Source of the DNA: Escherichia coli
Lineage (GTDB): Bacteria > Pseudomonadota > Gammaproteobacteria > Enterobacterales > Enterobacteriaceae
Strand: one strand, 5' to 3'
Assembly (NCBI RefSeq): GCF_016903815.1
Contig: NZ_CP069973.1
Length of the DNA: 64,000 nt
Part shown: in pieces, positions 844-61,745 of the stretch
How the letters are laid out: each line of letters begins with the position of its first letter
How positions within the stretch are numbered: position 1 is the first letter of the stretch
Notes under the pieces: model-generated
What the model saw: only the letters and a program-made list of their open reading frames with translations
Database searches by the model: none
Told to the model about the DNA's origin: nothing
Made by a program: the position numbers and the translations under genes

Positions 844-3734
<2,891 letters not shown>

Positions 3735-3761
3735 GTAACTACCGTCGCACGAACCAGGAAA

Positions 3762-3800
3762 GCCCGATAAGCGTTGCGCATCGGGCAATCTTGGGTTTGG
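3762..3800 (+). terminator. Candidate hairpin downstream of ascB (7-bp stem gcccgat/atcgggc)
   Basis: Inverted repeat 3762..3768 / 3780..3786 between convergent ascB and the antitoxin gene; weak T tract. Confidence 0.3.
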
Positions 3801-3812
3801 CATCAGTCAAAA

Positions 3813-4232
3813 TCAAAGAAACCATTCCGGCTTAACACCAAATCGGGCTGAAAGTGCCTTAATGTGGGATATCGTCAGGGATCGTTGCCCAGACAAAATC
3901 TGACTGACCAGGGATTTAGAGCCGATTTCGTTCTTCAAATCCGCGTAGGTCAGATTATGTTGATCAATCAGCGTACGAAGTAACGCCACGCCAACCGGCA
4001 TTGCTGCAACGGCTTTGTCGAACTCGGCAAACTTTTCGTTGTTGTTTTCATATTCTGCAATGCGGCTCGCCAGAAAGTCGATAAGTGGATTGGTGTCATC
4101 TTCTTCAATCAAATATTCGACCAGTTCCAGTGCTTCACGATAATCATCTTCTGAGTCACTACCTCCCAGAAAGGGGACTGCATTGACCAGTTCTCTTGTT
4201 GCTTTAACAGCGCGTGCAGCATTAGCAGTCAT
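3813..4232 (-). CDS. HigA-like antitoxin, XRE-family HTH
   Basis: 139-aa ORF; C-terminal HTH (EIGSKSLVSQILSGQRSLTISHIKALSARFGV) resembling E. coli HigA; overlaps upstream toxin gene by 4 bp. Confidence 0.75.
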   Translation of the reverse strand: MTANAARAVKATRELVNAVPFLGGSDSEDDYREALELVEYLIEEDDTNPLIDFLASRIAEYENNNEKFAEFDKAVAAMPVGVALLRTLIDQHNLTYADLKNEIGSKSLVSQILSGQRSLTISHIKALSARFGVKPEWFL

Positions 4233-4540
4233 TCTTTGTTCTCTCTGTAGTAACGTGTCAGTTTGTCATACTCTGCGTGATTCGTTATGTGCTTCACAAA
4301 GAACCGCTTATTAACAAAGTTTATGTAGGCAATAACCCTAAGATTGTTCCCGCCGACATCCAGAACGTACCATTTGTTGCGATATCTAAAATTGTCGAGG
4401 TTGGGAAACGCCGTTCGCATTTCTTCTGGTGTAGAAAAATCCGTTTCCTTAATAACCCGATACAATGAGTATAGAGCCAGAGCGTCGTTAGGATATTTGC
4501 GCGCACACTCTTCAAATGGCGCTTTCGAAATGATGTGCAT
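4229..4540 (-). CDS. HigB-like toxin (RelE/ParE superfamily mRNA interferase)
   Basis: 103-aa ORF resembling E. coli HigB (MH.I...A..D...KYP...FP.LDNF.Y....YV..VGGN.LRV.A...F......I....H.EYD); toxin-first order typical of higBA; AAGGAAG RBS. Confidence 0.75.
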   Translation of the reverse strand: MHIISKAPFEECARKYPNDALALYSLYRVIKETDFSTPEEMRTAFPNLDNFRYRNKWYVLDVGGNNLRVIAYINFVNKRFFVKHITNHAEYDKLTRYYRENKE

Positions 4541-4621
4541 TTTAACTTCCTTATTAGCGCCTGAATGACTAAACCTGGACTACCATTCCTTCGGATTTAT
4601 TTTCCTATAGTAGTTGATCAC

Positions 4622-4650
4622 ACGGGTGTTCACAATATGTAAACACCCGT
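4622..4650. promoter_or_regulatory. Perfect 9-bp inverted repeat ACGGGTGTT-N11-AACACCCGT upstream of the TA operon
   Basis: Palindrome seen directly, about 80 bp upstream of the toxin start, between hycI 3' end and toxin 5' end; candidate operator. Confidence 0.35.
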
Positions 4651-4706
4651 CTACACGTCACAATTGCACGTCCAAATTCCAAAACGTGAACATGTTTGTC
4701 TACGAA

Positions 4707-5177
4707 CTACTCTTCTTCCACCGCTAACTGCGCGAATCCGCCATTCCCTTCCCAGCCTTCCAGTCGTTGATAAACGGTTTCTACCGCATCTTTAATCGGC
4801 TGGGTCATCGGGTAGTAAAAGCCGACGATATCCGGCTGGATGCCGAGGAAAATCACTTCGCCAATGTCTTCTTTTAACTGGTCGATAAGGTAGTTCAACG
4901 GCATGTTATGGGTAGTCATCATAAACATCTCGGCGATATCATCCGGATCGATGATGCGGATCTCGCCGGGGTTTAGCCCCATATCCGTGGCGTCGACAAT
5001 CAGCAGTCGTGTCGGGCGCAGTTCGCGAATAGCGACAATGTCGTTTTCCGGTGCGCTACCGCCGTCAATCACCACCCAGTTACCTTTCGGCGCGGCGGCG
5101 CACTTTTCCGCCAGCAGCGGACCTGCGCCATCATCGCCCATCATGCTATTGCCAACACAGAGTAAAACGTCAGTCAC
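4707..5177 (-). CDS. hycI: Hydrogenase 3 maturation endopeptidase
   Basis: 156-aa ORF, last gene of hyc operon; matches recalled HycI. Confidence 0.9.
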   Translation of the reverse strand: MTDVLLCVGNSMMGDDGAGPLLAEKCAAAPKGNWVVIDGGSAPENDIVAIRELRPTRLLIVDATDMGLNPGEIRIIDPDDIAEMFMMTTHNMPLNYLIDQLKEDIGEVIFLGIQPDIVGFYYPMTQPIKDAVETVYQRLEGWEGNGGFAQLAVEEE

Positions 5178-5580
5178 GCAATCTCCTCACCATCAAATAG
5201 ATGGCGTTTTCCTGATGAATATCATGCAGCATACTTAACAGCATTGTACTCCATTCCTTCTGCTGCGAAGTTTGCGCAGCCCGGGCTTTATCGAATGCGT
5301 TGGCCAGCATCGGCACATGGTTAATGTCGATGACGATCTCACCATATTTCGGCACGCCTTCCATTTTGCGGCGGGCTTCGCTGCCCGCCTCCAGAGTGGC
5401 AATCCATGCCAGATATTCATCCCACGGACAGGTGAGCGCCGCTTCCAGGCAATCGATAACCCCAAGGTGGTGACCAATCGCCAGGCTGTAATAGACCACC
5501 TGCTGCGCCTCGGCGGGCGTGGCATCGTTCTCATCAATAAATTTACGGCTCAGTTGACTGAACACCACCTTTTCACTCAT
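5170..5580 (-). CDS. hycH: Formate hydrogenlyase maturation protein
   Basis: 136-aa ORF in hyc operon order. Confidence 0.85.
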
Positions 5581-19023: not shown

Positions 19024-19061
19024 ACGCCTTATTTGCCGGAGAGTATGGCTCTCCGGCAGAT

Positions 19062-22254: not shown

Positions 22255-22359
22255 TAACAATTCCCGATAGTCTTTTGCTATCGGGAATATTAACGACAAC
22301 TGACGAATCAAATAAAAACACCCTGTATAATAGGAAATCTTATTTTACAGGGTAAAACC

Positions 22360-29072: not shown

Positions 29073-29106
29073 TAAAAAGGTCCGATGGGCATCGGACCTT
29101 TTATTT
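29073..29106. terminator. Bidirectional rho-independent terminator between ygbN and decarboxylase operon
   Basis: AAAAA-ggtccgat-gggc-atcggacc-TTTTATTT; 8-bp GC-rich stem flanked by A and T runs. Confidence 0.7.
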
Positions 29107-31989: not shown

Positions 31990-32028
31990 CAAACAAAAGA
32001 AAAAGGCCAGCCTCGCTTGAGACTGGCC
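31990..32028 (-). terminator. rpoS rho-independent terminator
   Basis: ggccag...ctggcc stem followed on minus strand by TTTTTCTTTTGTTT. Confidence 0.6.
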
Positions 32029-32046
32029 TTTCTGACAGATGCTTAC

Positions 32047-60987: not shown

Positions 60988-61745
<758 letters not shown>

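Follow-up and report, generated by a model that had tools for sequence, protein, structure and literature searches.

The closest described relative of the locus examined here is higBA (ygjNM) of E. coli K-12, which shares with it the toxin-first gene order and the fold and length of the antitoxin, the two antitoxins being 46% identical. The K-12 operon is transcribed from a single promoter, mapped by primer extension, that is repressed by the operon product and by HigA in trans, and its inverted repeats have been drawn as putative binding sites (PMC2814082); according to a review citing Jadhav et al. 2020, the antitoxin dimer recognizes the K-12 higBA operator (PMC10135005). At this promoter, CATCCGTTGCCA-ATC-TGGCAACGGATG overlaps the -35 hexamer (TTGCCA-16-TATCAT, 10/12 consensus matches), and a second, imperfect copy, TTGCCA-ATT-TGTCAA, follows the -10 hexamer. 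For SehAB, a HigBA homologue of Salmonella, a SehB dimer is reported to bind a pair of palindromes, perfect or nearly so, that cover the putative -35 and -10 hexamers, SehB itself having an N-terminal dimerization domain and a C-terminal helix-turn-helix (HTH) (PMC7160566); SehB has 142 aa, compared with 139 aa for the antitoxin considered below. The SehAB palindromes were defined in a 2013 PLoS Pathogens article (PMC3868539) that now carries a retraction mark, and this system therefore serves here as weak context only; later papers still cite that article for the binding of SehB to its operator. The HTH antitoxins HigA of Pseudomonas aeruginosa and GraA of P. putida also repress their own promoters through palindromes (PMC6987408), but they belong to a different, shorter HigA subfamily with the motif TTAAC GTTAA, in which a central palindrome and two half-sites are encircled by two dimers.

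The window, by which we mean the whole 64,000-nucleotide stretch of E. coli DNA that was analyzed, carries a higBA module in the spacer between ascB and hycI, with an inverted repeat upstream of the toxin gene. The features to which the text refers are as follows.

2298-3734, plus strand: ascB.
3813-4232, minus strand: HigA-type antitoxin of 139 aa with a C-terminal HTH_3 domain (Pfam HTH_3), the presumed O1-binding repressor.
4229-4540, minus strand: higB-family toxin of 103 aa (Pfam HigB_toxin, E = 1.8e-22; 38% identical to K-12 HigB; RefSeq annotation in identical genomes).
4546-4552, minus strand: Shine-Dalgarno sequence of higB, AAGGAAG (from alignment A1 and the sequence).
4590-4606, minus strand: position homologous to the second operator copy, O2, of relatives, degenerate here as AGGAAAATAAATCCGAA (alignment A4).
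4607-4612, minus strand: predicted -10 hexamer TACTAT, 17 nt after TTGTGA, aligning with TATAGT, TATAAT, or TATCAT of relatives.
4622-4650, no strand assigned: full inverted repeat with 13-nt arms and a 3-nt spacer, reading ACGGGTGTTTACA-TAT-TGTGAACACCCGT on the minus strand.
4628-4644, minus strand: putative operator core O1, 17 bp and conserved, GTTTACA-TAT-TGTGAAC (family motif GTTYACAWWWTGTRAAC), with half-site centers 10 bp apart.
4630-4635, minus strand: predicted -35 hexamer TTGTGA in the right half of O1, equivalent to TTGTRA in orthologues.
4707-5177, minus strand: hycI, the last gene of the hyc operon, a co-directional upstream neighbor outside the module (TIGR00142 equivalog, E = 8.9e-69).

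The minus strand is thus the coding strand of the genes that neighbor the repeat, higA, higB, and hycI, and the higB and higA reading frames overlap by 4 nt. Toxin and antitoxin were both matched by Pfam, and an NCBIfam search of the two proteins gave no match; the antitoxin is a HigA of the K-12/Shigella structural type (PDB 5ifg and 5ycl, E about 1e-35). The whole arrangement, with higBA in the ascB-hycI spacer, occurs in 346 of 5,426 complete E. coli genomes (about 6%), and enteropathogenic E. coli (EPEC) E2348/69 is among the carriers of the module. The exact intergenic region is present in 343 complete genomes, at one copy each. Empty ascB-hycI sites lack the repeat, which therefore belongs to the higBA module.

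The spacer itself (window positions 3735 to 4706; loci L001 to L006) is a hot spot of structural variation among E. coli strains, for which at least four alleles were seen: an empty one with a REP-like hairpin, one with higBA, one with a hypothetical gene of 247 to 251 aa in addition to higBA, and one with higA alone and a 55-aa remnant open reading frame. The hypothetical gene lies between hycI and higB in its allele, and the REP-like hairpin common to empty-site strains, GCCCGATAAGCGTTGCGCATCGGGC, is found at 3761 to 3786 of the window, between the convergent ascB and higA. Contigs of a Collinsella and a Citrobacter metagenome-assembled genome (MAG; L008 and L023) contain the E. coli module at 99% identity and are probably misbinned E. 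coli DNA.

An earlier note, made from the sequence alone, had described a perfect 9-bp inverted repeat, ACGGGTGTT-N11-AACACCCGT, between the hycI stop codon and the toxin start. Both the sequence and its placement were confirmed: the repeat matches exactly at 4622 to 4650, the hycI stop codon (4707 to 4709) lies 57 nt upstream, and the higB ATG (4540 to 4538) lies 81 nt downstream, both codons being on the minus strand. This is the single exact match in the 64-kb window, compared with none in 100 shuffles, and further copies were absent even with up to three mismatches allowed. However, arms of 9 bp carry little weight by themselves, since the window has as many as 13 distinct perfect inverted repeats that are 9 bp or longer and have spacers of up to 20 nt, versus 4.8 ± 2.2 in shuffles from a first-order Markov model. 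A repeat finder showed that the symmetry extends inwards, giving 13-nt arms with one mismatch (92% complementary) around a 3-nt spacer. When at least 12 of the 13 arm positions had to match and the spacer was limited to 11 nt, nine matches were obtained, at about six sites, versus 0.61 ± 0.99 in shuffles, a shuffle rate from which well below 0.01 would be expected in the 166-nt intergenic region. Other long near-perfect inverted repeats lie at 29074 to 29103, 61665 to 61693, 32002 to 32031, 19031 to 19061, and 22320 to 22353 of the window; several of these have A/T-rich flanks and resemble bidirectional terminators. A small open reading frame of 37 aa on the plus strand (4614 to 4727) overlaps the repeat and was set aside as a mechanical prediction without support.

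Comparison within E. coli separates an inner, conserved part of the repeat from an outer, variable one. The allele with the extra gene, carried by strains PV0838 and FDAARGOS_1259, shows about 97% and 94% identity to the window over coding DNA, and the similarity between the window and PV0838-type alleles ends exactly at the higB ATG. Upstream of that point, alignment of the two alleles (A1) retains a 19-nt invariant block, GTGTTTACATATTGTGAAC, the string CTATAG about 20 nt downstream of it, the ribosome-binding region, and little else; the outer ACGGG/CCCGT arms are not common to the PV0838-type allele. Among window-type regions (alignment A3), two C-to-T substitutions fall in the right outer arm of strain WL297 and one G-to-A substitution falls in the left outer arm of strain NRZ14408, and the inner 16 nt are unchanged in both. 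Because the outer arms vary and the inner block is kept, the inner imperfect palindrome is the conserved unit. Of the 9-bp arm that the earlier note took as the element, the inner GTT therefore survives as part of the conserved core, whereas the outer ACGGGT/ACCCGT is allele specific and varies within E. coli. On these sequence comparisons, the functional core is the imperfect inner palindrome at 4628 to 4644 and not the perfect outer arms, and the GC-rich outer arms are probably dispensable for operator function. The regulatory region as a whole (window positions 4541 to 4706 versus 2298 to 2470 of L001) has apparently either been exchanged or evolved separately from the genes. Just past the hycI stop codon, at 4686 to 4696, an 8-bp palindrome, AACATGTT, overlaps an extra copy of a half-site, TGTTCAC; it was rejected as a second operator, not being conserved in the PV0838 allele.

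The same core accompanies higBA well beyond E. coli. A scan of species-representative genomes for the antitoxin found 23 loci, and the motif was counted in 19 loci of approximately 3.4 kb each, including three further E. coli alleles (L001, L004, and L005); a Geobacteraceae MAG with a 48% identical HigA homologue (L029) was dropped, since a tRNA-like sequence occupies positions 960 to 1200 in place of a toxin gene. The motif GTTYACAWWWTGTRAAC has 27 matches in the 19 loci; each of them lies in the 100 nt that precede higB, the rest of the loci having none, and in the 64-kb window its single match is O1, even with two mismatches allowed. Across the 19 loci and three plasmid copies, from more than 10 enterobacterial genera, the inner 17 bp have the consensus GTTYACA-WWW-TGTRAAC. 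In an alignment of 14 sequences from 10 genera (A4), O1 reads GTTYACATATTGTRAAC with 15 of 17 columns invariant, and the flanking DNA cannot be aligned; the order is unalignable DNA, O1, a stretch of fixed length and variable sequence, TAnnnT, O2, the ribosome-binding site, and the ATG. The second copy, O2 (GTTYACATAATGTAAAC), follows the -10 hexamer in 12 of the 14 sequences. Neither of the E. coli chromosomal alleles retains an intact O2: the copy is degenerate, so that regulation in the window may be weaker or different. Their leader, with its own Shine-Dalgarno sequence, is also about 45 nt longer (the extra DNA lying at about 4553 to 4589).

Antitoxin orthologues in many Enterobacterales are 63 to 82% identical, with an almost invariant HTH region, and the recognition-helix region EIGSKSLVSQILSG is invariant among the antitoxins that share the motif and different in K-12 HigA (alignments A2 and A5). 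Copies on plasmid pK2044 and on Salmonella plasmid pRSE40 have O1, the -10 hexamer, and O2; Cronobacter plasmid pCUNV1, Pantoea, and Mixta have the -10-proximal site only. In a MAG of the Desulfuromonadales, with an antitoxin of 48% identity, a -10-like box is flanked by GTTCAC-N5-GTAAAC and GTTTAC-N5-GTAAAC. Homologues of the module were also seen on 544 PLSDB plasmids, 467 of them from Klebsiella, including pK2044 of K. pneumoniae NTUH-K2044 (L035), which has a perfect TATAAT between O1 and O2. The higB reading frame of Hafnia alvei GB001 (L027, 1193 to 1426) ends at 77 aa, and the toxin may therefore be inactivated there; the antitoxin and both operators are kept.

The distance from O1 to the -10-like box is constant as well. 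From TTGTRA within the motif to TAnnnT there are 17 nt in every orthologue with O1, the spacer being constant in length and variable in sequence. A promoter scan called TTGTAA-17-TATAAT in pK2044 (10/12 consensus matches) and TTGTGA-17-TATAGT in E. coli PV0838 (9/12), the first hexamer lying inside the motif in both cases; the corresponding TTGTGA-17-TACTAT of the window has 8/12 matches, below the threshold of the scan, and was not called. This geometry would place the transcription start near 4600, with a leader of about 60 nt.

We consider it very probable, from these comparisons, that the repeat contains operator O1 of the higBA promoter, a putative binding site of HigA. The operators of type II toxin-antitoxin systems are expected to have dyad symmetry, half-sites about one helical turn apart, and a motif conserved alongside the cognate antitoxin across relatives; both the symmetry and the conservation were found, in a repeat that lies 81 nt upstream of the higB ATG. 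Such operators are also expected to overlap core promoter elements, an overlap that is predicted here from the 8/12 pair of the window and the homologous pairs called in PV0838 and pK2044. The HigA-type antitoxin of 139 aa, with or without HigB, would bind O1 as a dimer, as described in the literature for homologues, its two HTH motifs contacting the half-sites GTTTACA and TGTGAAC, with centers one helical turn (10 bp) apart, in successive major grooves. The right half-site would contain the -35 hexamer TTGTGA of a sigma-70 promoter; we propose that HigA seated there would consequently exclude RNA polymerase and repress the operon, and that repression would be relieved when the labile antitoxin is lost or degraded. 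Binding of O1 by HigA, the promoter assignment, and repression of the operon are the parts of this scheme that we infer. Autoregulation by the antitoxin was also the reading preferred in the earlier note, and it gains support from the phylogenetic footprint, the predicted promoter geometry, and the analogy with K-12 higBA.

The operator model does not account for the extended outer arms. Over 30 sites, complementarity beyond the 17-mer amounts to 72 of 240 flank positions (30%, versus 25% by chance); only in the window (4622 to 4627 with 4645 to 4650) and in Hafnia alvei (L027, 1118 to 1150) are 7 of 8 flank positions complementary, and two such outliers among 30 sites compare with about 0.01 expected by chance. 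Extension of the arms by quasi-palindrome template switching and additional protein contacts are both possibilities.

An alternative functional form is a hairpin in RNA or single-stranded DNA, the 13-bp stem acting in hycI read-through transcripts as a 3'-end stabilizer, pause site, or insulator, or else as a structure in a long higBA 5' untranslated region. On the minus strand the mismatched arm bases can form a G-U pair, which gives a stable hairpin (-21.3 kcal/mol, z = -6.4) that drives by itself the score of the whole intergenic region (z = -1.8); it stands 57 nt past the hycI stop codon with no other terminator called, the two C-to-T changes of WL297 would keep G-U pairs, and the outer arms are far more complementary than those of other family members. 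Yet the extended arms are absent from most orthologous sites, the PV0838 allele also lies behind a co-directional gene and lacks the extension, and the outer-arm G-to-A change of NRZ14408 is uncompensated. The element is kept as a sequence and not as a structure: core pair 4/14 is T/A, C/A, or T/G across relatives and never C/G, so that compensatory covariation was not found, and the frequent C/A is a mismatch in RNA and DNA alike. The repeat lacks a T tract on either strand, as previously noted (the stem is followed by GTGATCAACT on the minus strand and by CTACACGTCA on the plus strand), and a terminator scan gave no match, in agreement with the earlier view that it is unlikely to be a simple terminator; we therefore rejected an intrinsic (Rho-independent) terminator, of which the stem is present and the U/T tract is not. 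Rfam 15 covariance models run over 3600 to 5300 at E ≤ 1 returned one irrelevant subthreshold match elsewhere in the region. Furthermore, transcription from the predicted start, downstream of the repeat, would leave the repeat out of the higBA mRNA. The alternative of a structured RNA element, also raised in the earlier note, thus loses its support in the lack of a T tract, an Rfam match, and compensatory changes, and we regard the hairpin reading as improbable. We attach an equally slim chance to a dual use of the 29 bp, as a HigA operator on DNA and, through the lineage-specific GC-rich extension, as an RNA 3' end or insulator on read-through hyc transcripts; if true, such an arrangement would uncouple toxin expression from formate-induced hyc transcription.

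The operator reading is also to be weighed against binding of the 4622-4650 site by another protein, a global or neighboring regulator, in place of HigA. Conservation across homologous loci is a constraint on the DNA and does not name the protein that binds it; strings such as TGTGA and TGATCA in the region loosely resemble half-sites of global regulators. However, the motif accompanies higBA on chromosomes and plasmids whose contexts are unrelated, across many genera and into one other phylum, and has no second copy in the 64-kb window. Because the motif moves with higBA, its protein partner must move with the module too, and the only DNA-binding protein there is the HTH antitoxin, which makes another regulator more doubtful still. 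Least credible of all is a functionless palindrome arising by chance, as an insertion scar, or as a member of a repeated palindromic family, for although about five perfect 9-bp inverted repeats are expected by chance per 64 kb and the ascB-hycI site, with its several structural alleles, is a hot spot of insertion, repeats with 12 of 13 matching arm positions arise in shuffles at only about 0.6 per 64 kb, an invariant core stands amid unalignable flanks from one genus to the next, the repeat is missing from the empty site, and its occurrence at a single place in each of the 343 genomes, and once in the window, led us to reject a dispersed REP/BIME-like element.

The operator of this HigBA subfamily appears not to have been studied previously: variants of the 17-bp motif are printed in no paper of the library that we could search, and a literature search by gene names for the ascB-hycI module returned nothing relevant. 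The present analysis offers a testable operator and promoter model for an uncharacterized subfamily that is found in E. coli, including EPEC E2348/69, and on hundreds of pK2044-type Klebsiella plasmids. It leaves the understanding of type II toxin-antitoxin regulation unchanged and adds a standard example.

Set beside the known systems, the putative HigA operator O1 is closest to that of K-12 higBA, with which it shares the frame GTTnnCA-N3-TGnnAAC and an arm-N3-arm layout. At half-site positions 4 and 5 the window motif has TA where K-12 has GC, and the presumed recognition helix reads SKSLVSQIL in the window antitoxin and SKSMVSRVL in K-12 HigA (alignment A5), so that the K-12 paralogue differs in both the protein and the DNA. 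Such parallel variation would fit the prediction of the operator model, and half-site positions 4 and 5, together with Q versus R in the recognition helix, are candidate determinants of specificity. The promoters are also built differently: the -35 hexamer falls in the left half-site with a 16-nt spacer in K-12 and in the right half-site with a 17-nt spacer in the window, K-12 keeps both operators whereas the window allele keeps O1 only, and the chromosomal locations differ. Orthologues in Enterobacterales, including the pK2044 copy, have the same 17-bp motif at the same distance from the -10 hexamer as the window; in most of them O1 and O2 bracket the -10 hexamer, the leader is short, and O2 ends 18 nt before the ATG, an arrangement from which the E. 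coli ascB-hycI alleles depart. The layout in the window is that of textbook type II toxin-antitoxin autoregulation.
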